Assembly (NCBI RefSeq): GCF_963676685.1
Contig: NC_092348.1
Coordinates: 59,830,001-59,894,000 of the forward strand
Length of the DNA stretch: 64,000 nt
Source of the DNA: Mytilus edulis
Lineage: Eukaryota
Reading direction: 5' to 3'
The notes under the pieces are model-generated. The model ran no database searches. It worked only from the letters and a program-made list of their open reading frames with translations, and had not been told where the DNA came from. Each line of letters begins with the position of its first letter. The stretch's first letter is position 1. Below are positions 18,201-64,000 of the stretch, piece by piece. A program made the position numbers and the translations under genes.

Positions 18201-18550
18201 AGTATCGATGGTTTCCGATCTGCTATTTAATACTTGTTTTCGTTGCCCTTCCGGGATTGATTTTTGTGTTATCATTAGCAGGAACGGTACCTTTTGCTGT
18301 TGTCGGTTCAATTATACTATTATTCTTAGTGTGCCTTATTGTCATAAACATTGCACAAAAGTATTGCCGCAGCAGGCTGCCAAGTTGTTTGAGGAATTGG
18401 GACTTTTTGCCATTGTGTTTTCGTTCCTTAAAACCAATTGACAAGCTAATTTCCAGTGTAATTGGAATATTCGTATGCTGTAGAAACCAAGAAAAGGAAA
18501 CAGACATGTCCGAAAAAGGTTCCAATAACAAAGCATTCACAATTTTGTAA
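6208..18550 (+). CDS. SLC34A2: Sodium-dependent phosphate transport protein 2 (SLC34/NaPi-IIb-like), copy A, intact, about 648 aa
   Basis: Phase-consistent GT-AG exons: 6208-6216 (MDN; alternative 4468-4476 MES), 7711-7791, 11878-12016, 13014-13142, 13869-14012, 14445-14752, 15318-15447, 16076-16207, 17040-17264, 17901-18550 (1947 nt, open). It has both QSSS repeats ([20 protein letters not shown]), GANIGT twice, [10 protein letters not shown], a Cys-rich tail and a C-terminal TIL. The first two small exons are less certain. The symbol is a family-level best match, not proven orthology. Confidence 0.93.
6960..7610 (+). mobile_element. Abundant SINE-like repeat with a Deu/Nin-like central segment
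   Basis: tgtgcctgtcccaag..ggagcctgtaattcagtggttgtcg and the 3' end ggagagttgtctcattggcaatcataccacatcttcttttttata. Partial or related copies at ~5204-5495(-), 10109-10395, 18645-18840, 42300-42370(-), 58055-58230, 60680-60950 and 63310-63425(-). Confidence 0.7.
9602..10789. mobile_element. Foldback-type element built from AGAACTG/CAGTTCT repeats, with a nested SINE-like insert
   Basis: Imperfect terminal IR agatcacttctaacctc / gaggttagaacttatct; many ~25-bp tagaactgatttagacagttctacc units; insert at ~10109-10395 flanked by ttag. Confidence 0.7.
11475..11691. mobile_element. MITE with ~50-bp TIRs
   Basis: aatagggctcttcacggttagttcggccatattgga... and its reverse complement ending ...ccgtgaagagccctatt. 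Confidence 0.85.
14093..14350. mobile_element. Degenerate Tourist/Harbinger-like MITE in an intron of copy A
   Basis: gggaacaaccatttcacttcaa ... ttcaagttaaatggtgctttc, flanked by taa; ends related to 26610-26889. Confidence 0.5.
17356..17564. mobile_element. Short MITE in an intron of copy A
   Basis: Ends ggtggta / taccacc flanked by ttaa and ttat. Confidence 0.45.
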
Positions 18551-39674: not shown

Positions 39675-39807
39675 TTTTAAGCTATTTTTCACATATTTAA
39701 GTGTTGCATAAAAGAGGGAAAAAAGTTCAATTATAACAATTTAATGAAACATAACAGGTAAATCTTAAAAAATTATCCGTATCCGTAACAAATATGTGAT
39801 AAGATAT

Positions 39808-41128: not shown

Positions 41129-42109
41129 CAATATTATGTTTCATTGCTCATGTGTTGTTTCCGTATATTTTAGCCACTCGTCTTGAGCCTACCCATTTGA
41201 TCCGATAACACCCCATACAGCAATAAAATTATACTTTTATTGCCATTCATAACTCTTAACAGACCAATTAACAGACCGGGTTTTATACATCCGACCCATT
41301 AACAGACCAGGTTTTAAATAAAGATTTATTTATGTCACCAAAATACAGATTTTTGTGTAGATTTTTCACACAATGATATCAATTTGGTTGACATACATAA
41401 TGCCTGTCTTTGTTCGATGTTCAAAATATCGCATGCAAGTAAATTCAACCAACGTGTCTTTTTGTGTACATTTTGTGTGTGTAAAATGTGTATAAATTTA
41501 TTGATGAGTAACACGCCTTTTCATTTTATAGATCGTACATCGAAGCTAGAAAAATAAAAATTACACCACTGGATTCAGTACATTGAATTGTTTTGTTAGA
41601 CATGAATAATTTTTATGATACACATATATTTAAAAAGTTATACAATGAAACATGCAGAATTTCCAATGATTTCCTCGATAACACCTGATTAACAGACTTT
41701 AGCCAACCCGATTAACAGACCCACCGCCGATATAGCCACATACTCAATATAGATTAACCGACCAATCTCTCGGTTAGCCGAGTGTCGGTCGTGACGACGG
41801 TAAGTGATTTGGTGTGATTTTTTCCTTGGAGATAAAATTATTTAATCCTAATCACTCATTTTAAGTTTATCTACCTCTATATGCACCCAAGAAAAAAGTG
41901 CTAGTGTTTAATATCAAAAACAAATATAGAAATATGGAATTAGATAACCAAAATATACTTTTATTAATTTAATGATGCCAAATTTGACAACGGATGCGAT
42001 ATATTTTTATTTCCTTACAGGTCGTTCTGAGATTTGAAAAATAGCACGTTTCCGAATCTGTCAGTGTTTACCTTGACCTTTAAGACGAAATGTTATTAAG
42101 ATCTGAAAG

Positions 42110-42186: not shown

Positions 42187-45100
42187 ATGGATTACGAAAT
42201 AAAACAGGTAACTAGATTTTTTTATTTTAATCTTTTGCTATGATCTAGAATTACATAAGACATATGCATATAATAATTAAAAAAGAAGGTACGGTATGCA
42301 TCATGCCAATGAGACAACTCTCCACAAGAGAACAAATGACACAGCAATTAACAGCTAAAGGTCACCGTCAGTCTGTTTGTAAAAGAAATGAGAAAATAAG
42401 ACGATAGTTAAATTATATATCAATAAAACAAGCTTTTCATCGGACATATATTCGTCCTTTCTAGAGTATATTTAGGAAGAATTTAGTAATGTGCACGTGT
42501 ATCATTATGATAGACGTATTATTCGTCTGTTCAAACATTGTCCTTATTTTTTTATTGTCTACTCATCACTGCTCATGATTGTCTGTATTTGATTTCTTTT
42601 GGCCATGGAATTGTAAATTTACTTAATTTTCAAATCTTTGTATTAACACATATATGACCATGAAAAGAAGTTTACGAGAAAAAAAATCAATTTAAGGTTC
42701 CAAAGGTAGTTGTAGAGGTAGATTCAAATGGGAATGTGTCAGATGAAACAAAGGAAGAACATATTGACCCTTGGGCTGTCAGTACTAAAGAAACCGATGA
42801 TGGACCAGAATGGAAAGGTCAGTGCTTTATTTTCAGTCAGAATACCTCTATACATATTTAGTGTAATTTCTTTAAACTTGTTTAAACACATTGTACCTTT
42901 GAGAATTGAAGGGGTTATTATTATTGTTTGCTAACATAATCAACCAGTAAAGGAAAATAACAAGTTATGATGTGGTGCGTCCAAATCGCTTTTCATCAAC
43001 AAATAAAGATCAGAAATGTTTATAAATATGTATGCTTATACTGTGCTAAGAGTTGAACTTTGACAGTATTATTTATTGTTTTAGATATGACAGGCAAAGA
43101 CAGGACAATTTACCTCATGACCGTCTTGATCAAAATTGCATTCATTTTTGGATTTTTATACCTATTTATTTGTGCACTTGGTTTCCTTGGAGATGCATTT
43201 CAGTTAGTTGGAGGTATGTCATGCATGTACATGCATGCGTAAAATATTTTTTAATTTAGAATTTTAGTAAAATGCATTACTAGTTTATATTTATATATAG
43301 CTCTTATATCATTTATTGTTCCACATCAATTTTCTGTACATTTTAATTTTCACAACCAATTGTGATAAAGTATCTTCTATTTGAAAATATATAATTTGAG
43401 ACCTTTTACAACATCATATAATAAACTGTTGAGTATATGATATATAAGATCTTTAATATATTGCAGGGAAAACAGCAGGAAAGGTTTTCAGAGAGAACAA
43501 AATTCTTACCAACCCAGTAGCTGGTTTGATGATGGGAGTTCTGGTTACTGTTTTGTTACAGAGTTCATCCACTACAACGTCCATTATTATTACTATGGTA
43601 GGATCTGATAGTAAGTTTTGTTAAGGTTCTAAATAACACGATCATTACTTTTAAAATCATTCTGAATGTTCAAAGTCCTACAAAGTAAAATAACAAAAAT
43701 ATCGAACTTCGAGGAAAATTCTAAACCGAAAGTCCCAAATCAAATGGTAAAATCAAAGCTTAAACACATCAAACGAATGGATCATATCAACTGTCATATT
43801 CCTGACTAGGTTAAGGCATTCTCTTGTCTATAAAATGGTGGATTGTACCTTGTTTTATAGCTAGCTGAGAAAAGAAAGAACGAAAGAAAGTTTTCCTTGT
43901 GCAGGATAAAAACATTTTTGATTGACTTGTTTGATGCAAGCCATTAAACGTTTGCGTTGAAATGGAATATGGTCGATATGGCCATTTCATGTAAAGTTAC
44001 TGTTTATGAAATTTAAGAATTGCCTGAAATGATTTTCTTTTATTTCCGTAGACATAGATAGTTGTATTAGGCACAACTTCTTTTTTGAATTGGATTCTTA
44101 ACTGTTTCGGACGACATTAATAAATCTGATGTAGATAAAATGATTGTCAGATGTACCACATTATAATACTAATATCTACAGTTAAAATATACATGAAAGT
44201 TCAAACATAGGAACTTTAAACTTAATCTTTTCAGGCTCTGTATAAAATGCTTGCCATGGCAATTCAGTAAGAATTCATGTATTGCATTTTAGTTATTCCA
44301 ATTAAGACTGCAATTCCTATGGTAATGGGAGCCAATATTGGAACCTCAGTTACAAATACCATAGTTTCATTGACCCAGTCCGGAGATCGAGAGGAGTTCC
44401 GGAAGGCGTTTGGTGGCGCTACAGTACACGACATGTTTAATTGGTTGTCTGTAATAATCCTTCTACCAATAGAAATAGCGTTTCATTATTTATATCACCT
44501 GACAAGCACCATTGTTGGAAGTTTACATTTAACAGAATCTGGAAAGAAAAAAGACATGTTGAAAATTATAACAAGACCGTTTACAGAGGTCATTGTTAAG
44601 GTAATATCATGATACAGATTGTCCTTAACAAGCATCAAATATTTTCCACTGGAAATTCAGCAATCAACAATCAATAAATCATCATTTATATTAAAATTTG
44701 AATAAGAAAGAAATTATATTTACGTATTATATATCTAGGATTGATTTTGTTTGCTAATCTTCCAGTGGAAGTATTTAATGCGTTTCCAGGACTAAAACAA
44801 TTGAGCAATGCCTGTAAAAGTTAGGTTCTCTGATGTGGGATTCCCAGAAAATAGGGCTAGAAATTCAGACGGTAACTGTAAAAATAAGTATTTTGCATCA
44901 ATTATCCGATCTTTTATTGTTCAACAATCGTTTACCGATGTTCAAATTCATCATTCAGTTAATAAGAAGGATAGAGTTTATAAACAAAATCTGGTGGAAT
45001 CGCATGAACCCAAATATAATATTATAAGTGCTTCGGCAGGTTCAGAGTCCCCTGATATGCATACAGACTATCAAATTGGTTGAACTGTCGCAACATTTGT

Positions 45101-48100
45101 GTAGAGTTGATTTCAGTTCTTCTTCGTCAAACATCAATTGGAGAAGTTTTGTGTTAGGAGCACACCACTGCTGATGATTTCCGCCCCATGAACGTGCATG
45201 AGCGTAATGTATCGATTTAATAAATAACAGGTTTTACTTTTCCAGGTAAACAAACATGTAATCACAGACATTGCATTGAATGAAAATGGCGCATCAGACC
45301 GTTCGGTGTTACATCGTTGGTGCAAACAGATTAAGCAGCCCTTCAATACCACGATAGACCATCATAGTATTTACAGTAAGTGTATTTATTCTGTTTCTTT
45401 CAGTTAGTGTTATAACTAAAAGCTAATTTAACCCTAAAATATCTTCTCAACTATAACCAAGAATTGTATATACGGAGCTCACGCACATATAAAAATGAGC
45501 GTGTTCACATTAAAAATAACAATCAACCAGATAATTGATATTTATCAGTATTTCTTGAATATAATTTTATCATCGTTGTTATTTTTTGAGAAGAGTGAAA
45601 AGGTACAGATAGTTTCAATAAATAAATTGGCCCTCGAAGCTTCTTGTGATTACTTTGACAGTTTTACAAATGCTACTTTAATGAGTGTCTGGATTGAGTT
45701 TATAGAAATGATAATAATGTAATAAATATATAAAGACTGAAAAATGGCCAAATAAGAAGACAAATATTAAAGGATTCTTAAAAAAAAAGTTGAAAAGAAA
45801 TAAAGAAAAGAGAATAATTGGCAAACGAAATGAAAAAAAATGATGATAATAGAGGGGGAGGACAGGGGTAAGGGAGACAGGAGAAAGGGGTATGAGAAAG
45901 GGGAAAGGGGGTAGGAGAAAGGAGAGGAAGGCTGGGAGAAAGGAGAAAAAGTTGGAGAAAGGAGAACAAATAAAATATCTCTCCTTTTAAAAAAATTTCT
46001 AATATTTCAAGAAAAAATATCTCAAATCAGATGTTTTATTCTAATGGGAGAAAGGATAACGGGGTAGGAGAAAGGAGAAGAGGGATGGGAGAAGGGTACC
46101 CCCTGTCCTCCCCCTCATAATAGCATAAAAAGTAAGAATACAGAAATGAGGACTCCTTCCAGACACCATTAAGTTTTTGAAATATATTTGTCTTATTTGT
46201 TGCTGTATGTGTTTTTGTTTTATTGAGACTTTACAATTATTTTCAGATTCAACAATAGTTCGTCAGTTGAAAAGACAAGATATTAATTATACTTTAGAAG
46301 GCTTTAACACAAACAATTCTTTTATCGATTGGAAAAGTGACGAGACACTAATGAAGACAATCAACGTAGAAAGATGTAAGTTTCAACTTTAAAGAAATGT
46401 ATGACACGTGTATTATCTAGAGAAATTGACAACGTCGTCACAGATAAAATTGCGATAAACAGATTATCATTGGTCATCTCAACTCGATTGCTTTTCTAAC
46501 TTTCGACGATCCGGATCATGCGAGAAAATCAATCTTGTTGAAATGCTCATCGATAATCTATAAGTACAAAAACACAAGAACCCTACCAAAAACCGGGGAT
46601 GATCTGTGGAGTTCTGGCAGAGTAAAAAGATCCTGCTTTACATGTGGCACCCGTCGTGTTACTTATGTTAGAACAAACTGGGTGAATAGTATAAACTTGT
46701 TGGGTTATATTTATGGACGTAGCTACACTTGGAACATTTCCGGCATCATTTTTCTCATTTTACTCTAAATTGTTTGACTTAATATGAAAAATGAGATATG
46801 GTATGATTGCAAATGAGACATCTTATCACCCGAGTAAAACACAATACCGTATGGTTAGTAATAAAAGGCCCCGACATCAAAATGTGAAATAGTTCAAACG
46901 GGGAAGCTAACTGATTAATTCATAACATTCAATATATGCGAACTAGCCTGTTGTTATGGTCACAATATAAACTGTAAACTCATAGCATTGACAGTATTAT
47001 AAAACATTGTCAAATAAAACATCTGAGGTACCATATTTTATACACAATTGTATGTACAATCTGGACGAAACACGTATCAGTTTTGAAAATGATCTCATTT
47101 TCAATATTATGTTTCATTTTATGGTAAAGCAAAGTTTTTACATAACTGAGATGTACTGAACTACTGATAATATTCAACATCTCCTTGAGTTAAGTTAAGT
47201 TTGTTTTCGGTTTTGTTTTTATCCATCTAGAATGACGGTTTTTGAAATAATTTCTATTGTTTGTCAGAAATGCTATTATTTTTGTAGGTGACAATTTGTT
47301 TGCCAAAACAGACTTGTCTGATTCCACTATCGGAATACTTCTTTTGCTTATTTCCCTTGGATTAATCGTGATATCTCTGATCCTTATGGTGAAACTGCTT
47401 AATTCACTCCTAAAGGGCTCAGTTGCTAAAATTGTCAAGAAGATCATCAACTCAGATTTCCCTGGAGCGTTTAAACATCTGACAGGATATGTTGCAATAA
47501 TCGTTGGAACAGGTTTGTTATGATAATTCCTTTCTCTATTAGTATTTATATATTTATGTCTATTTTCTCCGCCATTAGAAGACACATATACAAACATTAT
47601 ATAACTGCACGCGTTTGTAAAAATGTGTTTTTTTTTCTTATAACCATAGAAAATTTTAACTTGAGAATTTGCTTTAACCTGTACGATGTATCTAGTTTAT
47701 TATTAAAGACCGAATATTTATATAAGCTTTTTTCGTAGTTGTCAATAGTTTTTCTGGACGCAAACAAAAACCATAAAGAAAACATGATAAAACATAAACA
47801 AACATTCATGGGATTTGTAAAAAATGTGAACAAAACAGGGTGTCTACAATACTTTAACAAGATACACCATGGACCTTTTCAAAATTTATCTGCTAATGCT
47901 TGGAATTATCAAATTTGGTCAGTTTTTTCATCATGTTATTTTTCACTCCAACTTAATCTTGATATTCCTTTTTTCAGGAATGACGATTCTTGTCCAGAGT
48001 AGTTCTGTATTCACGTCAACGTTAACTCCTTTAGTTGGAGTAGGAGTTGTTAGCCTTGACAGGATGTACCCTCTGACTCTTGGTTCAAACATTGGAACTT

Positions 48101-48651
48101 GTATTACTGGAATACTTGCTGCGCTTGCAAGTCCAGCAAAGGCTATACCGCACGCACTACAGATTGCACTGTGTCATTTATTTTTTAATCTCTCGGGAAT
48201 ACTTTTGTTTTATCCTATACCCATTACAAGAAAAGCGCCAATCAACCTTGCAAAAAAGCTTGGAAATATCACTGCAAAATATCGTTGGTTCTCTGTCGTA
48301 TATTTAATTATGATGTTCTTGGCTCTTCCGGGCTTCATTTTTGGACTATCTCTCGCAGGAACGTTACCATTTGCTATTATTGGCTCAATAATGTTATTTC
48401 TTATACTTTGTATTTGTATAATTAACTGTTGCCAATCAAAATGCAACAATTGTTTGCCGTCAATTTTGAAAAATTGGAACTTTTTGCCGTTGTGCTGCCA
48501 TTCTTTTAAACCATTAGACAAAGTGATAAGAATAGTTTTTGGAGTATGTAGATGTTGTAAAAAAGAAATAGAAAATACAGTTTCTAAAAAAGAAGATGAT
48601 CCAACCTTTTCTGATCACAGTTATGACAACACAGCATTTACAGTATTGTAG
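42187..48651 (+). CDS. SLC34A2: Sodium-dependent phosphate transport protein 2 (SLC34/NaPi-IIb-like), copy B, intact, about 626 aa
   Basis: Exons 42187-42207, 42697-42817, 43085-43213, 43467-43610, 44293-44600, 45246-45375, 46247-46375, 47288-47512, 47978-48651 (1881 nt, open). Intron phases match copy A and most exon sizes are the same (129, 144, 308, 130, 225). It has two QSSS motifs, [22 protein letters not shown] and a C-terminal TVL. Confidence 0.93.
45852..46116. mobile_element. Purine-rich MITE in an intron of copy B
   Basis: TIR gagggggaggacaggggta / tacccctgtcctccccctc; ataata on both flanks; internal ggagaaagg repeats. Confidence 0.8.
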
Positions 48652-48893: not shown

Positions 48894-48993
48894 NNNNNNN
48901 NNNNNNNNNNNNNNNNNNNNNNNNNNNNNNNNNNNNNNNNNNNNNNNNNNNNNNNNNNNNNNNNNNNNNNNNNNNNNNNNNNNNNNNNNNNNN
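48894..48993. other. Assembly gap (100 N)
   Basis: Run of exactly 100 N, a typical placeholder for a scaffold join of unknown size. Confidence 0.99.
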
Positions 48994-49386: not shown

Positions 49387-52300
49387 AAATAGAAAATTTC
49401 ATCCTGGTAACTATGGTTTATTTCTATGGTGACTTTATTTAAAGCCACTGAATCGATGCCACAGCTATTGAAGGTTTTCTCTTTTATGGTAGTACTAGCC
49501 TAGTGGTAAGCATTTCTGTGTTGACATGATTATCATTGAAATGGTCAGTTATATTTGAATTTTTTAGATACAAAGAATTTATTTTTTATTTGTTATTTTG
49601 TCTGATATTGTTTTTGTGTCTTATCGTTTGTAGATTTAATTCTATTTTTAATTTTCTATTCGTATGTAAAAGTAAAAATAATTAATCACCGCGTTCATTG
49701 TATGATTTTAGTTTAAAGCAACCATGGCACATAATTTATTTGTTTGACACAGTTTGATTTGGAAAAAAACAGACATAGTTATAAAGTGCAGTTAGTTGCA
49801 CAATTATAAACACAATTTTATATTGATATTCTTGTAATTGTTATAACATACATCAAATAACATAATTATAAACCGAATCTCTAACTTTTAGAAATTTAAC
49901 TGTGACGTCACTTTTTTGTAGCTTTGATACATTGTGTGACACACAGTTCGTAATTCTATTATGCTGTTACTGTGTACTGTCCTAAATCTATTTAAGGTAT
50001 TCGTTTTTATTCTCTGGTTAACATGTCGAAATGTACTATTATATCATTGATTCTCTGTACTGCATTTTTTTGTACTGTACTCCTGTCATGTAATGTTGTT
50101 TTTTAAGAGGTATATTTAACATTGCCATAAAGCGCGACGTTTGGCTAGCCAGAAAACCAGGTTCATCCCACCATTTCTTTTACTTAAATTTCTAAACAAA
50201 GTATAAGAAACGCGCGTCTATTGTACAATTTGTTGAATATTGTATCTGTGATGGGTTTATTTATAATAATATTATTTTTAGCACAAAAAAATACCGAAGT
50301 TTAGGTTTCAAAAAAGGCATATTACCCATTCTTTCACAGTGAATTATCCTTCAAGATCGTCTTGTTTCGACATCTATCATAAGGTGATGTAAAAGGAACG
50401 AAGATCTACAATTTAAGCCAATTGCTTTTTTATTAATAAAAACACGTCCGGTTAGATTTGGAACGTTAAATCAGAGTCCGTTTAGAGATAGTACAACGCT
50501 TTGTGTACGATTGGAATTCTCGCAACAATTCTTGAAGTGTCTTTAGGTGACCTGTTGCAAGTAAATAGTTTTTTTCCCTATCCAATTCCTCTTCATTTTC
50601 CAGTGACAATCTAAAATTCCCCGGCCTGCATTCCGAACGGCTTTTACAACAGGACCTACCTATTGTATTTTTTTTAATTTGTTCTTCTCCTGAACATTTT
50701 GCCCCTGTACGTTAAGCAATCAACAGTCAACAAATGAATCAATGTATCGAAAATATTCGATATTGTGAAATACTTTATCATTTTCATAAGTGTCATTGCA
50801 TATCATTTTAGTAAGGATTAAGTTAATTTTTGTTTGTACAAATTGTAATCAAGATACAACTTTTGATTGGAATAGATCGTATGCAAAAATATTTCTACAA
50901 TTGTCTCATTAATATATTGTTGTCTAAATTTCACTTAAAACAAAATTCTATGTTTTGTAGTTGTAAGTAATACACAATAAAAGTATAAGTTTTACAAGTT
51001 AAAAATTATACATGATCCATTGATGTATGAAAGCATTTTCTGCATTACGTCATACTTACATTAATAGTTTGTACCGGAATGAGAATACTTTTGTATTAAT
51101 TTCGAATAAAGTTATATATTTCGGACAAATTTTCGAGTATATGGCGACCAATAAACATAACAGGATACATAAACTATTTTAATATGTTAGCACAAACGTT
51201 ATTTTTGGCAACATGTCGTCATTCTATTCAGAACTAGTAACTTCATAGTAAAATTGGCAACTGCGTGCGAAAATATAAATTCTTTTGACACGAAACTCTT
51301 ATCTAAAACTACGTGCAGTTTAAAGAGTTACACAGAATACAATGTTCACATGAATTCTATAACACTGTGAATGCTGAATCTGAAATGGTTTGTTCGGCTA
51401 TTTTAGAGACTGAATTTTCTGTTTCTTTGTTACAACATTTGCATACTCCGAAAAGTGTTTTCATCACTTTGTCTAATGAATTGAAAGAATGGCAGCACAA
51501 CGGTAAACAGTTCCAATTTTTCAAAACTTGAGGCAAACAACTTTTGCATTTTGATTGGCAACAGTTTATGATACAAATACTAAGTATAGAAAATAATATC
51601 ATTGAGCCAATAATTGAAAATGGCAGCGTTCCCGAAAGAGATAAACCAAAAATGAAACATGGAAGAACAAGGAACATCACTATCAAATATACGACTGAAA
51701 ACCAGTGCAGTGATATTTCCCAGCTTTTTCTCAAGATTAATTGGCGCTTTTCTTGTAATCGGTATAGGATAAAATAAAAATGAGGTGAAAAAATAAATGA
51801 CAAAGTGTAATTTGAAGTGCGTATGGTATAGCATTAGCAGGACTTGCGAGAGCAGCAAGTATTCCTGAAATACATGTTCCAATATTTGCACCAAGAGTGA
51901 GGGGATACATCCGATCAAGGCTTACAACTCCAACTCCAACTAACGGCGTTAACGTTGATGTGAATACAGAGCTACTCTGGACAGAAATCGTCATTCCTGA
52001 AAAGAAAGTCAAAAAATTATTGAAGCGAAAAGAACAAACATATGATTATATCAGTTTATTACATAGCATTTTTCATATCGCATGTATTATCAGTCATAGG
52101 TTCAATATCAGCTCAAGAGCCACGATATGAAAAATGACATGTTATGACCTTTTTATCATATGCTTCAACAATTGAGAAAACAACAGATTCATTAATTGAT
52201 CCTTTTACGTGTTTCCTAAATAGAAGTTTAAAGAGTGAAAAGTTCACGAACGTCGGACCCCAAATTTAGAACATTCGATATGAATTTTTTTTTATCATAT

Positions 52301-53592
52301 GCCTCAACAGAGAAGAAACATATTTCAATATGGACGAATCGACAAAAATATACATAATGAACACTGTTTGGATAATTATCACCCGAACCAAACTATTTTT
52401 TTCAAATTATCACATGGTAAGATTAGAGCATATTCGTGGAATAAATATTTGTATTTCTCTGCACAATATTCGCTGCCGAGTAATGTTATTTAACCATCTT
52501 GAAATTAATTACCTTGTGTATATTAACGATAAAATAACATAATCAATATATATTATCAAGAGATTATTTTGGTTTATAATATAAATCTTTGAAATATCAT
52601 TTACTTAATAACATGTTAATAATGTCTTGATTTTTAATCTGGAATAAATGCATTCAGTATCTTTCATTGTTCTGAATCCACAGGTAAAATTATGTCACCT
52701 GTATTAGTCATACCAATGAAATTTCATTATTCCAAATACGAATAAAAATTGAACTATCGGGGAATACAATTGAATTATTACACATAATAGATGTTTTACA
52801 ATATATTGATTTGATATCAAGCGGACAGGTAGAGTTTATCAGAATAGATATAAGTTGCTTATGTTACTAACGAAAAGTCACTTCTATAGCTCTTAATTGG
52901 CTATTATCTATTACTTCTCTTTGTATGTTAATTGAATTATCTCCATCAAAAAAATAATTGAGTTGCAACTGAACTTGTACACTACAGTTTAATATATTTT
53001 TTTCGGAACATTTTTGTACCAAGTCAGGAATATGGTAGGTTTTTTTCACTTGTTTTGATGTTTGAAAGACTTGGTTTTGTCCGTTTTAATCGACTATCTC
53101 CTTTTGGAATTTGCTTCGGGGTTTAGTATTTTGTTATATCATTTTTATTCTGAATATCATATATTGTGTTTATTTCTTCAATACATATGTGTTCGATTAT
53201 GTATTGTAACTTGGAACATAACTTTTCATTAATAAACAAACCTGTTCCAATAAGTATTGCAACATATCCTGTCAAATGTTTAAATACTCCGGGGAAATCT
53301 GAGTTGATGATATGTTTTACGATTTTAGCCACTGAACCTTTTTAGAGTGAACTTAACAGTTTCACCAAACTGACCAAATATACCACTATAAATCTTAGTG
53401 AAATCAACAGTAAGTCTGAGTAGTTCAATATTTGAATCATACAAGTCTGTTTTGGAAAACAAATTGTCACCTGCAAAAAGGTTAAATTCTTTTTTACAAA
53501 TTTAGATATAAGGATAAGTCATCATTACTCAATGAGAAACTTATATAAATAATACCGTTATATTAATAAAAATTGTCTTGAACAGTATCGCA

Positions 53593-54062
53593 TTTTTGTG
53601 CCCCACCTACGATAGTAGAGGGGCATTATGTTTTCTGGTCTGTGCGTCCGTTCGTCTGTTCGTTCGTCCGTTCGTTTGTCCGTCTGTCCCGCTTCAGGTT
53701 AAAGTTTTTGGTCAAGGTAGTTTTTGATGAAGCTGAAGTCCAATCAACTTGAAACTTAGTACATATGCTCCTTATGATATCATCTTTCTAATTTTAAAGA
53801 CCAATTATACTTTTGACCCCAATTTCACGGTCCACTGAACATAGAAAATGAAAGTGCGAGTTTCAGGTTAAAGTTTTTGGTCAAGGTAGTTTTTGATGAA
53901 GTTGAAGTCCAATCAACTTGAAACTTAGTACAAACGTTCCCTATGATATGATCTTTCTAATTTTAATGCCTAATTATATTTTTTACCCATTTTAACGGTC
54001 CATTGAACATGGAAAATGATAGTGCGAGTGGGGCATCCGTGTACTTTGGACACATTCTTGTT
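53593..54062 (+). mobile_element. Helentron-associated non-autonomous element (HINE/DINE-1-like)
   Basis: T-rich flanks, subterminal IR tgccccac / gtggggca, 5' hairpin, TTCG/TCCG microsatellite, two 169-bp core repeats (53693, 53862) and a small 3' hairpin gtgt..acac. Confidence 0.8.
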
Positions 54063-55859
54063 TGTATATGTGATCAGTAAACTCAACACTTTCACATTTC
54101 CAAATATATCAAATATTAACTTAAGAATTTTTCAAACTTTATATGAATGGTAATTGTATTTTATGAAAACATATTTACTTTATCATCAATCATTAAATAT
54201 CACTTATGATACATATTTGGTAGTGTTAATACCTTCAATAGTATAATCTATCTCGTGTCTTTTCAACTGGTCAACAATTGTTATATCTAAAATAAAATTT
54301 TACCGTATTCTCATTTTTAAACGAAACTATATCGCAATTATATTTTTTATCTGCAGAAAAATCAAGCAAATAAACCAAAAAATATATGTCTATCACCGAA
54401 GAGTCTGAACTAATGGTTTTCATGTCTATAATTTTGAATATTCAAATTTGTAATTATTGATCTCTATTTTATAATGCCTTTATCCATTATTTCATAATCT
54501 ATATATTTTACCACCAACTTATTCCTTAATGTGTTGCACGATTGATTTATTTGCTTCGATTAATATTTTGTTATCTATACTGTTAACTTTTCCCAATGCC
54601 TGATAGATGAATCTCTTTTAAAATCTTAAAAATCAGCACAAGAAGCTTGGTTTAAACCTTAATTGATCAATAAGTGATCAAGTCACTTTTGTCGTTTATC
54701 GAAGTCACATGCTGTCATAGGATCGGATATAAACTATGTATTTAACGTTTTGCTTAGTATAGAGAAGAAAAAGAAAGTTTTATTCAGAAAAAGTGATGCA
54801 AGGCATAGATAAATATATCAGTCCATTACCATCATTTCAGAACTCATTTTAAAACAGCAGTATGAGAATCATAATATACGAGTAAACTCCTATCAAAATT
54901 CACTCAAGCAATGGAAGGTTGCAGTCTTAGGTATAGACAAATATCTTAAGGTAATTCAAGGTGTAAGTTAAAAAAAAAAAACGTTGATGAAAGGAAAAGA
55001 ATTTTACACAATTGTTATTATATTCCAAGGTATAAATAAAAGTGAAAGATAAAAAAAACACGATTATACAACACAATGACCAAGAACGCCAAACAGACAA
55101 ACATCAGTCCACAACACACAACTATGGAGTATGCAGGATACAAAAAACGGACAGTGAACTCAGATGAATAATAAGCTGTTCTTGCTTCTGTAGTGAAATT
55201 CTTGTGCATAGCATGAGGTAATTTACTAGTATTATTTAAATTGTTGGCCCTTCTATATTTTACTTACCTTAACACGTGAATATATTCCGAGCTTTCCTGG
55301 AGAAAGTTAATTACTATTTGCACACTTTCAAAATTGTCTTAATACAAGCACCTATAATAGTGTTAAGTAAAAACATAATATATTTGTTCTTATCCAAGTA
55401 TAAAAACTCATGTAAACATACTGAAATTACTATGATGGTCTGTCGTGGCATTGTATGGCTGCTTTATTTGTCTGCACCAACGATATAACATCGAACGGTT
55501 TGCAGCACCGTTTTCATTCAATGCTATGTCTGTGATAATATGCTTATTAATCTAGAAAGAAGTATTAAAAACTTTGTACAAATTACAGTTGCCCCTCATT
55601 GTAATTCATGAGGTAGACAAATCCGGCCAACGAATTGATCTATAACTATTTTCAACAACTACATGAATAAATTTATTTCAACTTTACCATCCTTGTGTTT
55701 AACCAATTATTGTAACACTTACGTTCTGGTATTATACGCAAAAGGCAAAAAGTAAATTGCATAAGATTCCATTACAATGACCAGTCTATATCAAAATCTA
55801 GTGTACAAGGTAAATTTGGTTGGGAGAAATTGACATTTTTATGTTCATTGTTTAAATAA

Positions 55860-56100
55860 CGACAAATAATGGCAACAGTAGTATACCGCTGTTCAAAATT
55901 CATAAATCGATAGAGAAAATACAAATCCGGGTTACAAACTAAAACTGAGGGAAACGTATCAAATATAAGAGAAATGTAACACACACAGAAACGAACTATA
56001 ATGTAACAATGGCCATTTTCCTGACTTGGTACAGGGCATTTTATGAAAAAAGGGTGGGTTGAACCTGGTTTTGTGGCATGCCAAACCTCCCGCTTATTAC
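55860..56100 (-). mobile_element. SINE-like repeat with a Deu/Nin-like segment
   Basis: Minus-strand aaaaccaggttcaacccacc...tgccctgtaccaagtcaggaa; related fragments at ~50120-50175 and ~43780-43860. Confidence 0.5.
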
Positions 56101-57032
56101 ACAATTATCAGCAATTTTTTTTTGCAAAAATTACAAATAAAAAAATCTTCATTGGTCTAGTCTATTTGCAATTTAATGCATTATAATGTTGAGATTTCAA
56201 CAGTCACCAACTTGTTTGATCTTGTTCATCAAATTGGTCTATTTTGCACGTTTATAGTTGGACACATAACACATAACTTTGGTCCCCAGTATTATATTAA
56301 TTTGGAATACTAGTATACAAATCAAGGTAATAAAAGAACAATGTGTGGTCTTTTGTTTATGATTACCTGGACAACGAGCTCTGTAAAGGGTCTTGTTATT
56401 AATTTTAGTAGGTCCTTCTTCTTGCCAGATTCTGTTGAATGTAAGCTTGTAACAATGGCGTTTGTCAGATGATATAAATAATGAAATGCTATTTCTATTG
56501 GTAGAAGGATTATAACAGACAACCAGTTAAACATATCTAGCACTGTTGCACCACCAAATGCCTTCCGGAACTTTTCTCGATCATTCGACTGTGTCAATGA
56601 AACTATGGTATTCGTAACTGATGTTCCAATATTTGCTCCCATTACCATTGGTATAGCGGTCTTCATTGGAATAACTTAAATAAAATACATAAACTCTTAT
56701 TCAATCACTGTAGTAAGCATTCATAAGAGATGTTGAAGATATCAAAATGACATTCACACTCATAAGTTCATCAATAACAGTATACAAACTAAACATATAT
56801 AAACTAGAGACTGTGTAACCTGAACCCCACCAAAATCAGTCTATGATCCCAGGCACTCCGACAGAGTTAATAGATCCTGCTCTATATGTTGCTGTTGTAC
56901 TCGCGTACACTCTATGATCATTCTAATTTGGAGATGCCACGTTACAGGAAAATGAGACGGGGTTTGGGTTACAACAATTAGAAGATATCCGTTGTCATCT
57001 GTGAAACATATATCACATAAAGGTCAATAGGC

Positions 57033-57255
57033 TCATGATAGTGTCCGTGCAATTTTTAAAGGAATGACTTCAACTTTACCACGTGAAACCTTTTGTACCA
57101 TCAACTCTCTGGCAAGGAAATCATAATAGTAAATACAGCCTCTGAAATATCGTATCAACTGGGAGATATATACTTCATATGCAGACTCTGTTAGATTGAT
57201 GCTACATAGAAATAGAAGCATTATGTTTGGAAAGCTGAAATCATCCGTTTTAGCT
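57033..57255 (-). mobile_element. Penelope-like retroelement RT/thumb fragment, decayed
   Basis: Translates as KTDDFSFP..LFLCSIN..SAYEVYISQLIRYFRGC..Y.DFL, resembling the KRDDFNF...SNIP..PAYGVYISQLIRY.RAC motif of Penelope-like elements. Confidence 0.7.
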
Positions 57256-59239
57256 TCATGTTTGGTTCTTTACAGTGAAATGCAGTGAAGTTTAGCATTT
57301 GATAGTTCATTAATAACATTCTGGCGTATCATAAACAAACAACTTGTAACGTCTCATTTCATTGGCCGAAAGATTCAAATACAACAACAATGTAGTCAGT
57401 GTGCACGTGAATTGACACACTTGACCGACAATGGAATGTACTATATGTTACTACGAACGTAAAAACAAGGATTTGTTTAGTTTACAAACCTTTGGTCAAA
57501 AGAATTAAATAAATCTTTTGTTAACTTCAAATAGTGGGGTCGAAATATTATACTGATATTTTGTATAAGTAATATTCTAAGTTCTTTATGCATGCAGCAA
57601 CTCAATTATCGTGTATCGCATAATGAGAAATATAAGGATAAAATAAAATGCATGTGCCGCTTTTATACGGATGAATATATGAACCACTTTTAATTTCTTT
57701 CATACTGACGATAGGTTATAATCCTAACAATGCCGTAGTCACTTATAATAAGTATCTCATAATACCATTACAATAATTGATGATGGGTTGCACTGACATT
57801 CCTCTTTTATCATTTTCATGCTATAAAACATACACACAGTAGCTAAGCGTACCATAAACGGAGGAAAATTGTCCCCCAAAATAGAAACAAAATAACTTTA
57901 ATCGTATCATTTGTGCACCTGAATGAAATCAGTGAAGGCATATTGTTGTAATAAATTGAAATGTAACATCGGCGAAGATTATTTCTTTTGCATGTGTTGA
58001 ACAAAATAATAAATTAATACTTGCGAGAAATGTCGTAGTTTATAAGGAACAATTCTCGTTTGAATTGTTTTACATTGTCATTTCGGGGCCTTTTATGGCT
58101 GACTTTGCGGTATGGGCTTTGCTCATTATTGAAAGCCGTACGGTGATTTATAGTTGTTAATTTCTGTGTTATTTTGGTCTCTTGTGGAGAGTTGTCTCAT
58201 TGGCAATCATACCACATCTTCTTTTATATATGTATTTATAGTATACAAGCTAGGTATACTCCCACAGTTAAGATTTGTCACTTTTTAAGAACACATCCGT
58301 AAAAAAACGGACGCCCACCGGACAGAAGGAATCAGAAGGGCAATCATACCACATCTTCTTTTTTTAAATATAAATGTACTGTTTTCGATTTTAAATGGAT
58401 GAACATTTAATTTTTAATTTTATACTGTAAGAATAGAGCTGCATAACATTGCTGAACTATTCGCTAAAGTACATGTAGTATGTATTCGTATTTGGAGTCA
58501 ATCAAAAACATATGTGGATTGAGTTTCTTTTTTAATTTTTCATTGAGCTTTTGGTGTCGTCCCTTGATCCAGAGGACAAATTTGAATTAAATATTTCGAT
58601 GTGAAAACTGTTAAGATTTTAAAGTTTAAAATTTTACTATTAATTGCAGAAAATTATAAAACCTATGAATTTCACATGCAGATTTATAAAAGCTAGAATT
58701 GTGATTGCATAATCAAGAACACAATCATGTACGCAAATACGACGATGGAAGCTTTAAACGACCTTGACCAGCTACGTGAATATTGATCAGTCCATTCAAC
58801 GTTATAGTACGCGTGTTCTAGTTTCACAGGTGTGAGGTCGAAGGTTTGAATTGACCAATGAAAATGATCGTTCCTTAAAGAGAATATCTAATAAAGTTTG
58901 TTTGACTGATTACGTCGCAATACCTTTCGCTAAGCTTTACCGCATATGAATATAACGACCCTCGTTGGCAATGGATTTGTAAAAATTTGATTTGATAGAT
59001 TTGTTTAACCAAGAAAGCCACCATCGTTGAGTAAATCAGGGAGACGAAATCATCTGTTTAGTGTAATATTAAGTTATAAGATAAAATTAGCTATCTTCAA
59101 TCTCCATAAGAAGCTAAGGCTTATCTACCTCAGGAATAAATTACCTAAGCTGTATTTGGCAAAACTTTTAGGAATGTTTGGTCCTCAATGCTCTTCAACT
59201 ACGTACTTTTTTTTGCCTTTTTAACATTTTTTTATTCGA

Positions 59240-59283
59240 GTGTCACTGATGAGTCTTTTGTAAACGAAACGCGCGTCTGACGT
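59240..59283 (+). ncRNA. Type I hammerhead ribozyme, core intact, weakened stem II
   Basis: GUGUCA-CUGAUGA-GUCUUUUGUAAAC-GAAAC-GCGC-GUC^UGACGU inside a repeat copy at ~59115-59325. Confidence 0.7.
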
Positions 59284-59795
59284 AAATTTAAAATTTCAAT
59301 CCTGATACCTATGAAGAGTTTATTTACCCTTACTTTTACAAGCCTGATAGGATTTAGTTAGTAGTTAGATGAAATTCTATAAAAATTAACAAATTAAGAA
59401 TTTGTTTAGTTGTCACTGTTTAACATTGCATATTACTAGCATCAATATATTCTTACATCGATTGCATCGAATAAATCATCAAATATGTCTTTCATCTGCT
59501 TATGGGAAGCTTTTTTTCAAAATTGATATACTAAATTTTAAATGAGTTATCTTCATTAATTTTGAATCAAAACAAAACTTACTATCAGATCCTACCATAG
59601 TGATAATTATCGACGTTGTAGTGGAGGAACTTTGTAAAAAAAAAGTAACCAGAAGTCCCGTCATCAAACCAGCTACCGGGTTGGTGAGAATTTTGTTCTC
59701 TCTGAAAACCTTTCCTGCTGTTTTTCCTGCAAGCTATACAGGTCATATGCCTTGTTTCTATCAGTGTTATTTTAATTCAGTTAAGCAAAAATTAC

Positions 59796-62700
59796 CTTCT
59801 CTATATTTCCTAGGCAGGAACTTCATTGTCCAGTCACATGTTATTATGGCATCCTCGTTTGTCATTTGTTGTACAATGTCAGATCTGGCTTGCTCCTGAT
59901 TCCTGGATCGTATGTCGTGAGATTTCCATCTCCTTATGGCTATAATAGATTCATCTACCTAAAAAAAAATACACAAAAATGTGTTTAAACAACTTGTTGA
60001 AAGACCTTCATTATAAATAACGATACAAAATCTTGCCAAATGACATTAACAGTAATTTATGGTTCATGACGATAAAATATACACTTTATTTTAGACAATA
60101 AAAAGTATATGATTTTGATGAATCAAGTTAACTTTTTTTCTGATGATGGTAATAATTATTTTATCAGACATCTGACAAATCACGATAAGGATATTTTGAC
60201 GAATCATGGTAAATTTAAATCAATTTGACTAACTTTGAAATATAATGGAATACAAAATGAATCAATTGAAAAAAGAGATACTTTTATTGTTTTCACATTT
60301 TTGGTATCATTGTAAAATCAAAGTTATACTTTTTTCAAGGTTATATTATCTTTTATCTTACCATATACATTGTTGCCTCTTTGTTCTGCCATGGATGCTC
60401 CTCAGCTTTTTTCTTGATGGTATTGAGACTCAATTCTAAACTTTCACAATCTTCACAAAGCTTAGTATGTTGATAATTACATTCTGAAGTATAATTTGGT
60501 TCAGAGGGACTGCTTAGAGCATATTATGTGCAGTGGTCAATAACCAAACTTTCTCTTGAAATATGTGACTAAAATTATTTAAAATTAGAGTAATTATAAC
60601 ATTTCATTTCTTTATCAACATATAAAATAAAACTAAAAAAACAAGATTTATCTATTGCCTCAAAAGTTCTTATATAGAAACTGATGTACAGTAGTTGTCC
60701 TTTGTTTGTGTAATTTATAGAATATACATGTTTCTCGTTTCTCGTTTTTTTTTATATAGATTAGACTGTTGGTTTTCCGATTGGATGGTTTTACACTTGT
60801 AATTTTGGGGCCCTTTATAGCTTGTTGTTCGGTGTGAGCCAAGGCTCCGTGTTGAAGGCCGTACCTTGACCTATAATTGTTTACTTTTATAAACTGTTAT
60901 TTGGATGGAGAGTTGTCTCATTAGCACTCATACCACATCTTCCTATACCTATAAAAAATGTTTAAAATATAAGTATTGTAGTAATAAACCAATTTTCTAG
61001 ATGTTCCAGACATTGCATAGATATTTTAAAACTCATGGTTACCTTTAATTACTTATACATCTACTTTACTTCAACTCTGGTGGATAGTTGTCTCATTGGC
61101 AATCATACCGCATTTTGTTTTAAAATCTTATGAGGTACTGTATTGTAATTGATCCATTTTTAATTCATTTGTAATCCTAGTTATTCAGAAACTTATTTCA
61201 AACTAACCTTCAACCCTGCTTTAAGATATGTTTTCGCCTTTTGTAGGCCTAATAACAAGCACTTTACTTCTTCAGTTGGCAACTCTAGTCTTTTGATGAC
61301 TTTGTCAAGTTCATCAAAACCTTTACATCCTTCCATGATGAAATTATCAAGACCCTCAACACTTTTTCTGACCACAGCTGAGCATTCATCAAGTATTTTG
61401 TACAGTGTTCTGCTCCCTACAAAACATTGAATAAGAATTCATTTCATTTCAATTTCTGAAAAAGCATCCTGATATTATAATTGTAAAATATAAGCTAAAA
61501 TCATGGTGGTAATTTGCATGGTATTGACTTAAATATGTAATTGTTTAACAGCTGACTTTTTTGGGTCATTATTGAAGGATGCACGGTGACCTTTAGTTGT
61601 TTACATCAATCAATGTCATATGAACATAATGGATAGTTGTCTCATTTGAAACCAGACCAAATCTTTCTATTTTACATAAAAATTGTGGATATGCCCATGT
61701 ACTATGTACAATATTTAGTACATTATCTTTATGGGGAAACACCTTTAAATCAACTGATACATATATTGGTAATAGGCAAATTTCAAACTACAAAAATGCC
61801 AATTCAAAGTTAAGTCCATTGATACCAAAGTCTGGTCCACCATATACACTTACTTATTTTATTTTTGGTAGAAATTGCCATTACATATATATGTTAACTC
61901 ACACATATTTCTCTTTCAACACTTATTAACAATACCAAGAGTTTCATTACAGTTACATGTACAAGGTTATGTATTGCATTCCAAATCTGGACCAATATGT
62001 TTTTCTTTGTCTCAATCTGTGTTATGTTTTTTTTTCACATACAGTAAATTGCATATCAACGTCCTATTTCTTCAAATAATTAAAGTAGGGTATTACTGTT
62101 GATAATTTCGAAACAATAGATTTCAAAACAATAGAATTATGTTCACAGATCACTTATAATAATAGACAAGATAATAAAAAAAAAGCTAACAATTATCTCA
62201 AGTGCTTTTATATAATTGGCTTAATTATGAATTTCACATGAATTTCACAAGTCCATTTGAATAACAAATTGCTTACCAAGAAGTTTAACATTCTCCTCGT
62301 TGCATAATGCTACATACTGAGAAATAATGGAGGAAGGTGTAAGACTTCGTATAACAGTTGGTATTATAATGACCTCTCCTGTTTCCGTTTTCAATGTTTT
62401 CTCACCAAAGGGTTGATCTTTAACTATCTGTCCGGACGTTATAAAGTCAATAAAATGATCTAACTGGCTTACATTATACTTTTCACTTGACAGCTTTTTG
62501 GTTGTAACTGGTTCCCCTACACCGAATTGCTCAATATGCTCTTTTGCTTGGTTAAATTTGTAACGAGTCAATCTAGGTATAAGCTGAAAATTGAAAAGAG
62601 TGGGAAAATATAAACATTTGCATAAACTGTACAATTTAATCTAAATCCAATACCACAGATCATTGCTTCAATGCTTTTAAAAATCATTTTAATTGAGAAT

Positions 62701-63906
62701 AATTATTTTTAGAATAAAAATTTCTCCTTGAAGCAAGTTCTGAATCTTCAATTAAAAATAGAATGCTTATTTTTTTTGTAAATTCATTGGGGTGTAAGAG
62801 TGTTGAATAAAATACATTTTTATAAAGCGCGGCGCTTTATAAAAATGTACTTTAGTCAACTTTTTTGACAATGTTTTTTCTCAGCCTCAGGATAACAATC
62901 TGCTCTATCCCTCTCTCAGCTATCTGTTATTTATATAATGAAAATGTTGGGTTTTTAAAAAAGAATACAATAAATATTGCAAATACAATAACCTATACAC
63001 AGTCATGCAGGCATATTTTTCACATTTTTTTCTATGACTTTCATCTTAATTCTATATATAAAAAAACCAGTCTTTTTGGTCAAAAATTAGATAAAGGCAA
63101 TACTGTACATTCAGAAATAGAATTGTGTGCATTTATTATTGCAATTTTTGAAGATTAAAATTTAAACCGAACTGTGAGATTAATAATAGCAGTTTTTGGA
63201 AAATCTACATACTGATATATAAATGTATCAAGCTCAGAATGGAATGTCTCTTATAGCTGATATTCATTCTGTCCAATAGATAAAAATATTGCAATAATTT
63301 ATAATATATGGTGGTATGATTGCCAATGAGACAACTGTCCACAAGAGACCAACATGACACAGACATTAACAACTATAGGTCACCGTACGGCCTTCAACAA
63401 TTAGCAAAGCCCATACCGCATAGTCCGCAAAGTTCATTCTACTTTTAAATATTTTTAAATCTTACCTTTTTTACATCTTGTAATTCCTTGTCTTTAACAA
63501 TGGTTGTCAGAATCTGTCGCTGAAATGTCCATGAATCAGCCCTTTGTAAATTTCAACTAGTGTTTCAAGTGTAGCATTTTCCTCCATTGTTTTTGTAGAC
63601 ATATCATTAAAAACTGCTTTTTTTATATAAAATCCTCTTCCCGAGGACATATTGTCGAAAGCATCAGTTCCATGCATTGTTTGGCCTTGCTGATATAGCG
63701 TTGTTGGGTTCTGGTGCTGGAATCTCTTATGTAAGCATTCAATTCTTTAACAGGACTAACACCAGAGATAGAAAGAAACTTGATAAGGGACTCAAGTTTA
63801 AGTGAATTTGACACAGAATTCTGATGTCAGACTGTGACAACTGAGAGCCTGTTTCCTGGCTGACCTGAAATTCACTATCAGTATCATCCAAAGCAGATGG
63901 TGTAAC
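59796..63906 (-). pseudogene. Spliced, decayed DNA-transposase gene, N-terminal part (probably Sola3-like)
   Basis: Exons 63906-63466 (three apparent frameshifts), 62583-62277, 61416-61208, 60568-60362 (TAA at 60526-60524) and 59958-59796 have compatible phases. Motifs ADSWTFQRQIL, QLDHFIDFITS..IVKDQPFGEKTLK, CSAVVRKSVEGLD, DHC.YALS..C..H.KLCEDC and WKSH.IRSRNQ..AR..DWTMKFLPRKYRE resemble the DWAMKFLP-type transposases of invertebrates. The Sola3 assignment is from memory of the family. Confidence 0.72.
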
Positions 63907-64000
63907 CTACAAAATAATATTTTAAGAGCCAGTCTGCCATAAAACCATGCAAAATCTCAAATTTCGTCCAAATTGGTAGTTATAACTGGGCAACATAATA

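Follow-up and report, generated by a model that had tools for sequence, protein, structure and literature searches.

Does a transposase exon that can be spliced in frame to exons of a phosphate transporter mark a new fusion gene? This question is raised by the window, a 64,000-nucleotide stretch of Mytilus edulis DNA, in which a transposase exon (59958-59796, minus strand) ends in YRE-G followed by gtaatt, in phase 1, and ttgcag opens exon 4 of an SLC34 gene at 59726, also in phase 1. In all likelihood, the locus consists of an internal, TIR-less piece of a Sola3-like transposon that occupies part of intron 3 of a disabled SLC34 paralogue, its in-frame donor being a probable coincidence of phase, and no working fusion protein is made.

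The junction and its open reading frame

The preliminary description placed a phase-1 donor and a phase-1 acceptor 69 nt apart and proposed a 278-aa frame from ATG 60370 to TAA 54204. Both were borne out by reading the exon ends. The frame joins 60370-60362, 59958-59796, 59726-59583, 56674-56367, 55551-55422, and 54286-54204, which amounts to 837 nt, or 278 codons and a TAA, each of the 5 introns having AG/GT. The estimate that such an agreement of phases arises by chance in about one case in three also stands. The sequence removed at the junction is of mixed origin:

59727..59795, minus strand: composite 69-nt "intron", made up of 44 nt of transposon intron (59795-59752) and, from SLC34 intron 3, the final 25 nt with the acceptor

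A close DNA relative of the transposon piece (G000:C4:47351250-47355483, hereafter the C4 twin) has the identical donor and the next 44 nt of intron, and the donor is thus the transposon's own. The ATG at 60370 corresponds to an internal Met of the transposases P0001 and P0005. Three AUGs precede it in the same exon (60522, 60482, and 60392), the last of which starts an out-of-frame ORF of 12 codons that runs over 60370. The 278-aa product contains only part of repeat 1, with one QSSS motif and a Leu at His184. In the available text of a study on SLC34, His220 is a Na2 ligand and phosphate is bound between both QSSS motifs (10.64898/2026.05.25.727688). Judged by its translation, the chimera would lack two features of a functional transporter, the pair of inverted QSSS repeats and this Na2 ligand. 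BLASTP of 158 family proteins against 143 SLC34 proteins gave no hit (0) for a protein with both parts.

An internal piece of a Sola3-like transposon

The piece, its exons, and one end of an element nested in it are given below; extended positions continue the numbering past the window edge.

59752..64000, on to extended 71933 (L011:7933), minus strand: internal piece of a DDD transposon, Sola3-like, lying within intron 3 of SLC34 copy 3
63906-63463, minus strand: transposase exon, frameshifted
62278..62583, minus strand: transposase exon, open
61208..61416, minus strand: transposase exon, open
60362..60568, minus strand: transposase exon with a premature TAA, contains ATG 60370
59796..59958, minus strand: transposase exon with the first catalytic Asp (DWTMK; DWAMK in the family) and the phase-1 donor
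63926..64000, unstranded: one end of the nested element, TTAA plus a TIR of ~29 bp starting GAGCC

The piece comprises ~4.2 kb of element sequence, nested insertions not counted, and encodes residues 164-616 of a 1044-aa DDD transposase (P0005). The C4 twin matches it at 86-96%, and the homology stops at 59752 and 71933. The twin runs on into the catalytic core, whereas the downstream half of the transposase is missing from the piece, in agreement with the earlier statement that the rest of the transposase is absent at the junction. Equally confirmed was the damage upstream, namely the stop in the exon starting at 60568 and the frameshifts at 63906-63463. Only the first of the three catalytic Asp residues is present; its counterpart D61 is near-invariant in the family alignment (A2). 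The exon at the junction is the best-kept one, with 98% identity to P0005 compared with 86-94% for most others; this exon also belongs to the catalytic core. The amino-acid identity of 86-98% to the intact-looking P0005 indicates that the piece is young.

We found no TIR match and no target duplication at either end of the piece, and the termini of its own subfamily were not found within 40 kb around the C4 twin. Clear homology to an empty site was not detected either: the rebuilt empty intron scored 30.5 against intron 3 of SLC34 copy 2, and shuffled sequences scored 5.0 +/- 9.5 with a maximum of 35.5. The preliminary description had suggested looking beyond 64000 for a TIR with TTAA belonging to this transposon. 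The TTAA and TIR at the window edge belong instead to the nested element, a separate family, and we rejected this TIR as an end of the element that carries the Sola3-like transposase. The nested element measures 5749 bp (other end at extended 69674, L011:5674), is absent from the C4 twin, and gave no transposase match. Its TTAA+TIR 15-mer occurs 164 times exactly in G000, compared with 1 match for the reversed control, and many of these matches are paired, facing, and ~5.7 kb apart.

The assignment to a Sola3-like family, which had been proposed for these exons, is supported; it was made through general features of the group. Sola3 elements, the subject of work by Bao and co-workers in 2009, reportedly have a DDD catalytic triad in an RNase H-like fold, are said to duplicate a TTAA target, and are said to have TIRs with 5'-GAG...CTC-3' termini. 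The mussel family resembles them in its intron-containing transposase of ~1000 aa, its near-invariant DDD triad (D61, D145, and D183 of P0002, with a conservation of 90% or more among 97 sequences), and its RNase H-like fold. The fold model (pLDDT 88) matched Mos1 and integrases with E 6e-5, mariner Mos1 being the best match; a model of full-length P0005 from a 5-sequence alignment (pLDDT 32) was discarded. Furthermore, related elements are 12-13 kb long and have short TIRs flanked by TTAA. The TTAA duplication was seen in the relatives C7d/C6d (32% protein identity), in C9c, and in the nested element. In contrast to Sola3, the piece has neither TIRs nor a target duplication and only the first Asp. 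The termini of related subfamilies vary: C7d/C6d and the nested element have GAG, C9c has GTG, and the closer C1a/C7a subfamily is TAT-like.

According to the available text of two studies, Sola has no Pfam family (PMC5751038) and Sola3 is recorded from bivalves (PMC10294476). The absence of a Pfam match extends to the mussel family, since P0005 and the 97 family members gave no hit. The string "Sola3" did not occur in the searched part of the PMC3985635 supplement, and we found no literature text that gives Sola3 termini. A PDB sequence search with A2 matched only the C-terminal C2H2 finger, and the ESM Atlas returned unnamed eukaryotic clusters, with DUF7869 on 12% of one of them, which is a lead only. 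In the records examined, the family is labelled "uncharacterized", and intact-looking members and spliced RNA contigs exist. Kolobok, for which the available part of PMC9587614 gives a C/DxxH signature and RR termini, was rejected because the near-invariant columns from D145 to D183 include no C/DxxH; taken by themselves, GA termini would be compatible with RR. PiggyBac (DDE_Tnp_1_7) was rejected as neither P0005 nor the 97 members had a PF13843 hit.

The host, a disabled third SLC34 copy

Three SLC34 paralogues lie in tandem, and copy 3 hosts the transposon piece.

11941..18547, plus strand: SLC34 copy 1, apparently intact, serving as outgroup
42187..48651, plus strand: SLC34 copy 2, 9 exons, 626 aa, intact
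Extended 73304-73284, 72999-72880, and 72387-72259 (L011:9304-8259), minus strand: copy 3 exons 1-3, past the window edge
59583..59726, minus strand: copy 3 exon 4, open, first QSSS motif
56367..56674, minus strand: copy 3 exon 5, open, carries H184L
55422..55551, minus strand: copy 3 exon 6, open
54204..54286, minus strand: copy 3 exon 7 to a premature TAA, in a stretch with 1-bp and 6-bp deletions
53236..53470, minus strand: copy 3 exon 8, frameshift and in-register stop
51357..51995, minus strand: copy 3 exon 9, two 8-bp deletions

Exons 3-9 of copy 1 match P0143 at 96-100%. The translation of copy 2 is identical to P0130, contains two PF02690 stretches (Pfam), and can be aligned over residues 31-600 to the solved SLC34A2; as the nearest paralogue, copy 2 was our standard of comparison for copy 3. 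The preliminary description took SLC34 exons 1-3 to be absent and to have been removed by a deletion accompanying the insertion. They are instead present 8-9 kb past the window edge, in order, on the same strand, and collinear with exons 4-9, and no SLC34 exon was thus deleted. Exon 2 has a 1-bp deletion and exon 3 a TGA stop. In total, 7 disabling lesions are spread over exons 2, 3, 7, 8, and 9, and copy 3 is a pseudogene on both sides of the transposase/SLC34 junction.

Given the density of lesions elsewhere and exon lengths entered by hand, lesion-free exons 4-6 have a probability of ~0.06 by a binomial and ~0.10 by a Poisson calculation. Whether their open frame exceeds chance is borderline, and dN/dS gave it no support. 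On the copy-3 branch we counted 21 non-synonymous and 13 synonymous changes in exons 4-6 (omega 0.48) and 41 and 26, respectively, in exons 3, 8, and 9 (omega 0.48; Fisher p=1.0), whereas the copy-2 branch had 8 and 20 in exons 4-6 (omega 0.12; p=0.012). Exons 4-6 are thus under no constraint beyond that of the broken exons; the test covered the SLC34 exons, the 57 codons of the transposase part being too few. In exon 4, 2 of the 4 private amino-acid changes are at conserved columns, and conserved residues beside QSSS are lost. H184L in exon 5 is the loss of the equivalent of human His220, matched by its offset from QSSS.

Orthologue models from two other Mytilus species (P0012 and P0009, 256-257 aa) have exon 3 joined to exon 4 and contain no transposase; being gene models, they are silent on the presence of the piece in their introns. 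The N-terminus of P0012 (MEYETPR) is that of copy 3 itself. Exons 4-5 are open in both models, which end after exon 5 or 6, i.e., before exon 7. They share H184L with copy 3, M. californianus included, whereas the exon-3 stop is seen in this genome alone, P0012 and P0009 having C and S at this site.

Transcripts, order of events, and competing readings

Some of the region 59400-60600 is present in sequencing runs of 20 of 24 rows (14 studies, shares of 0.07-0.77), and RNA contigs were compared for 4 runs of the 7 RNA-type rows. They contain spliced exons of the transposase family that differ from the window at 61328 (4/4 runs), 62474, and 62485 (3/4 each) and agree there with the C4 twin or intact proteins; at the three sites checked, the transcripts thus carry alleles of other transposon copies. 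The 59796-59726 junction was not among the 15 of 155 joints listed for the four contig sets; such contigs drop rare forms and cannot prove absence. X17 record 19 departs from the window sequence exactly at 59752. X16 record 10 extends 243 nt beyond the transposase exon with exon 4 uncovered (bin depth 1.56, compared with 3.57 expected if covered). X16 record 9 has 8 differences in 148 positions over exon 4 (12 in 144 for copy 2), and copy 3 may therefore be transcribed in some animals. Not displayed are 14 letters upstream of exon 4 in X16 record 9 and 18 after the transposase exon in X15 record 3. RNA depth was zero in the exon-4 bin in X15 and X18 and, in all four runs, in the bin with most of exon 6.

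Our reading builds on the observed position and breakpoints of the piece, the lesions on both sides, and the equal dN/dS of open and broken exons. Copy 3 would have lost constraint first, because the orthologues with models that end after exon 5 or 6 also have H184L, and the intron of copy 3 would thus have tolerated the piece. The piece probably came in as an internal fragment in a single step, for example copied in during break repair. We modestly favour this over a full insertion later trimmed at both ends, because exons only 25 and ~326 nt away survive. A related TTAA element would then have jumped into the piece. If the old SLC34 promoter still fires, its transcript could be spliced by way of the transposon exons to exon 4. 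Such chimeric RNA is possible, but the frameshifts, stops, and AUGs upstream, together with the early stop in exon 7 (of 9 exons), would make it non-productive, and it is predicted to undergo nonsense-mediated decay.

That the insertion killed an intact copy 3 and the other lesions followed is very unlikely. The omega of copy 3 implies some time under constraint and the exon-3 stop is private to this genome, but the piece is young, M. californianus also has H184L, and neither orthologue model reaches exon 7.

It is very unlikely that RNA driven by the old SLC34 promoter, or begun within the piece, is spliced from the transposase exon to exons 4-7 and that its translation from ATG 60370 yields a 278-aa membrane protein, part transposase and half transporter. 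This would be a fusion gene at its birth within a pseudogene, the donor being a Sola-type transposase and the host a transporter. A functional fusion expressed from this ATG, with exons 4-6 kept open by selection, is highly improbable. The canonical, phase-matched splice sites, the open 278-codon frame, and the lesions that avoid exons 4-6 all speak for it, as does the splice site from the transposon, which is found in known fusions as far as the available text goes (10.1101/2020.05.07.082677). It is contradicted by an omega equal to that of dead exons, the residues lost next to QSSS and at His184, the AUGs before ATG 60370, a transposase part with one of three catalytic Asp residues, and the lack of a fused protein among those compared and of the joint among those listed. 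The creation of a chimera by exon capture, as first proposed, was thus unsupported. An assembly error at 59727-59795 is highly implausible: the junction is known from the assembly alone, in a repeat-rich genome with an N gap at 48894-48993, but SLC34 exons 1-9 remain collinear on either side of the piece, a single intron contains both breakpoints, no N occurs between 48994 and 124000, and diverged alleles and nested insertions of its own mark the piece.

The locus illustrates how, in a window that ends short of the first exons, an intronic transposon fragment in a pseudogene can look like a fusion gene. As a by-product of some use, the analysis also brought out a mussel family of Sola3-like elements with introns. 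Compared with other SLC34 (NaPi-II) sodium-phosphate cotransporters (PF02690), copies 1 and 2 are complete, whereas copy 3 is an unprocessed pseudogene whose chimeric frame is without TM1 and the entire repeat 2. Host-transposase fusions are described, in the available text of 10.1101/2020.05.07.082677, as DNA transposons that lie in a host-gene intron on the same strand and contribute a splice site in frame with host exons; RNA support was demanded for every junction and purifying selection was shown. If the mussel fusion were expressed and selected, transposase capture, catalogued there for vertebrate transcription factors, would extend to a mollusc membrane transporter. The orthologue models P0012 and P0009 have no transposase part, and no fused protein was present among those compared. 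On paper, the locus shares with published fusions an intronic, same-strand transposon with a phase-compatible splice site. It differs in that its host gene is dead and the transposon offers a donor to a membrane transporter, whereas the published fusions have an acceptor behind a regulatory domain; in 8 of 9 published cases, as given in that text, the transposon provides the acceptor. Purifying selection operates there, whereas here omega is 0.48, equal to that of the broken exons.

Structure of the SLC34 locus and of the junction

Three SLC34 paralogues lie within the window (G000:C5:59830001-59894000). To these we added 60 kb fetched beyond it and numbered on from 64001, where exons 1 to 3 of copy 3 were found, in order.

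SLC34 copies and outlying exons of copy 3
About 11.9-18.5 kb, + strand: SLC34 copy 1, window
42187-48651, + strand: SLC34 copy 2 with nine exons, encoding the same 626 aa as Mytilus record P0130
Exons 1-9 across the window edge, - strand: SLC34 copy 3, disrupted
73304-73284, - strand: copy 3 exon 1, beyond the window
72999-72880, - strand: copy 3 exon 2, beyond the window
72387-72259, - strand: copy 3 exon 3, beyond the window

The transposase exons thus sit within intron 3 of copy 3. The preliminary description had considered SLC34 exons 1 to 3 absent at the junction; the search that it proposed past 64000 recovered all three, collinear, and an insertion accompanied by deletion of SLC34 sequence at the junction is therefore rejected. 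An assembly gap of 100 N (48894-48993) separates the 3' ends of copies 2 and 3.

The junction itself reads as first described. Exon 59958-59796 ends in a phase-1 gtaatt donor, and after 69 nt SLC34 exon 4 opens at 59726, also in phase 1. The six-exon chimeric model likewise held: its 837 nt make up 278 codons closed by the TAA at 54206-54204, with GT-AG at every intron. Pfam identified SLC34 exons 4 and 5 as Na/Pi cotransporter and gave no convincing match for five upstream frames. Three AUGs precede ATG 60370 within the same exon, and one of them starts an out-of-frame ORF that overlaps it. Since the inserted piece spans residues 164-616 of the transposase-family protein P0005, this alignment indicates that the YRE-G donor is native to the transposon and that ATG 60370 is an internal methionine.

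Decay of copy 3 and transcript evidence

Comparison with copy 2 revealed that copy 3 is dead.

Lesions of SLC34 copy 3 relative to copy 2
Exon 2: 1-bp deletion
Exon 3: TGA
Exon 7: deletions leading to TAA
Exon 8: frameshift and in-register stop
Exon 9: two 8-bp deletions

Exons 4-6 are open, and the chance that all seven lesions fall outside them is about 0.06-0.10, which is the best point in favor of the chimera as initially read. Branch counts were obtained by simple parsimony with copy 1 as outgroup, with no multiple-hit correction and with exons 1, 2, and 7 excluded. On the copy-3 branch, exons 4-6 accumulated 21 non-synonymous and 13 synonymous changes (omega 0.48), compared with 41 and 26 in exons 3, 8, and 9 (omega 0.48; Fisher p=1.0), whereas the copy-2 branch showed 8 and 20 in exons 4-6 (omega 0.12; p=0.012 versus copy 3). 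Among 50 SLC34 proteins, columns with 90% conservation or more are hit by three changes in exons 4-5 of copy 3, V119F, L120F, and H184L, none of which copy 2 has. Position His184 is equivalent to human His220, a Na2 ligand, and phosphate is bound between the two QSSS motifs, one in each repeat (10.64898/2026.05.25.727688).

In the orthologue models P0012 (M. galloprovincialis) and P0009 (M. californianus), exon 3 is spliced straight to exon 4 with no transposase intervening; both models stop at 256-257 aa and have H184L among the residues that they share with copy 3. Because H184L and the truncation are common to these models, the decay of copy 3 likely began before the young piece entered. 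Across three Mytilus genomes, the open or modelled part of the third SLC34 copy covers its first half only, at 256-278 aa (P0009, P0012, and window 54204-59726). An old, common loss of the second SLC34 repeat is likely, and a half-transporter role may exist in M. californianus, where the model has exons 1-5 open.

Four sets of RNA contigs, each from a different study, were aligned to 51300-64000. Multi-exon transposase contigs occurred in all four runs (depth 4-9), differing from the window at 61328 in 4/4 runs and at 62474 and 62485 in 3/4. At these positions the contig letters are those of intact proteins or of a second genomic copy on contig C4, so that the transcripts likely derive from other family copies. 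Of 155 joints from the four sets, 15 were listed, and the 59796-59726 joint was not one of them. Record 10 of set X16 continues for 243 letters beyond the junction exon and leaves exon 4 uncovered. Record 9 of the same set speaks against the present reading: it covers exon 4 with 8/148 differences, so some transcription of copy 3 may occur. No protein with both transposase and SLC34 parts was present among those fetched. A transcript from the old SLC34 promoter may splice through to exon 4; low-level chimeric RNA of this kind appears rather doubtful, and any such RNA would be non-productive. Host-transposase fusion genes are recognized by purifying selection and by RNA that confirms the junction (10.1101/2020.05.07.082677). 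Set against that description, the transposase-transporter chimera initially proposed is not established as such a gene.

Origin of the inserted piece

A DNA search of the genome retrieved a single close twin of the piece (C4:47351250-47355483), 86-96% identical in eight blocks. The homology starts mid-exon at 71933 and stops at 59752, 44 nt inside the transposon's own intron, whereas the twin, itself broken, runs on at both sides (residues 2-753 of the family protein). The window exons closely match database proteins P0001, P0005, and P0008 (949-1044 aa; M. galloprovincialis and M. edulis), with 86-98% identity to P0005 over most blocks. No TIR or target duplication was found at the ends of the piece. 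Record 19 of RNA set X17 follows the window through a retained intron to exactly 59752 and continues with 608 letters that did not align here, which independently supports this breakpoint.

The preliminary description proposed to look for a TTAA-flanked TIR past 64000. A TTAA-flanked GAGCC TIR lies at 63926, inside the window, and it ends a nested element rather than the piece.

Nested element
Window 63926 to L011:5674 (DNA beyond 64000): 5749 bp, TTAA target duplication, GAGCCAGTCTG TIRs

This element has no transposase match and is not in the C4 twin. Exact TTAA-plus-TIR matches numbered 164 in the genome versus 1 for the control, and the family of approximately 80 copies, many about 5.7 kb long, is likely a young non-autonomous Sola3-like one. 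The likeliest course is that intron 3 of the SLC34 duplicate, by then in decay, took in part of the interior of a Sola3-like element, oriented like the gene, and that the nested non-autonomous element landed in this piece later.

Other repeats of the region include short fold-back palindromes (39542-39674, 39799-39956, 40980-41132, and 62802-62860), a similarity between 39804-39866 and 62865-62936, and a degenerate tandem array (36392-37970). Two adjacent long inverted repeats (L012-L013, extended 80289-85399), one of 1052 bp (99.4%) and one of 791 bp (100%), represent either a foldback element of recent origin or an error of assembly.

The transposon family

The junction exon had 83 matches in the M. 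edulis genome among 107 candidates scored, and 20 kb was fetched around ten of the 83. Element C7d/C6d (12.3 kb; 32% protein identity to P0001) ends in TTAA/GAG...CTC/TTAA, C9c has 28-bp TIRs beginning TTAA/GTG, and C1a/C7a have 18-20-bp TIRs adjoining TTAA. In related subfamilies (L037-L040, L047-L050) the termini next to TTAA are TAT-like or GTG rather than GAG; the terminal sequence therefore varies inside the group. Two 12.3-kb elements (L051-L052, G000:C7:73473560-73485838, and its C6 twin, L053-L054) are 97-99% identical. They carry GAG TIRs and TTAA duplications, their transposase frame is open for 585 codons, and they are candidates for recently active Sola3-like transposons. Adjoining a truncated family member, L035:4412-6739 holds long ORFs of 400 and 326 codons that resemble another, EnSpm/CACTA-like transposase.

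Across 97 aligned sequences (P0002 plus 96 of 150 search hits, picked by core coverage and moderate length), residues D61, D145, and D183 each reach 90% conservation or more. The transposase model (pLDDT 88) matched mariner Mos1 and retroviral integrases in structure comparison (best E 6e-5). Alignment and model together indicate a DDD cut-and-paste transposase. On the basis of the TTAA target, GAG ends, and DDD residues, all features of Sola3, the family is provisionally labelled Sola3-like. Sola elements are without Pfam domains (PMC5751038) and Sola3 is present in bivalves (PMC10294476). Kolobok and piggyBac likewise have TTAA as their target (PMC9587614).
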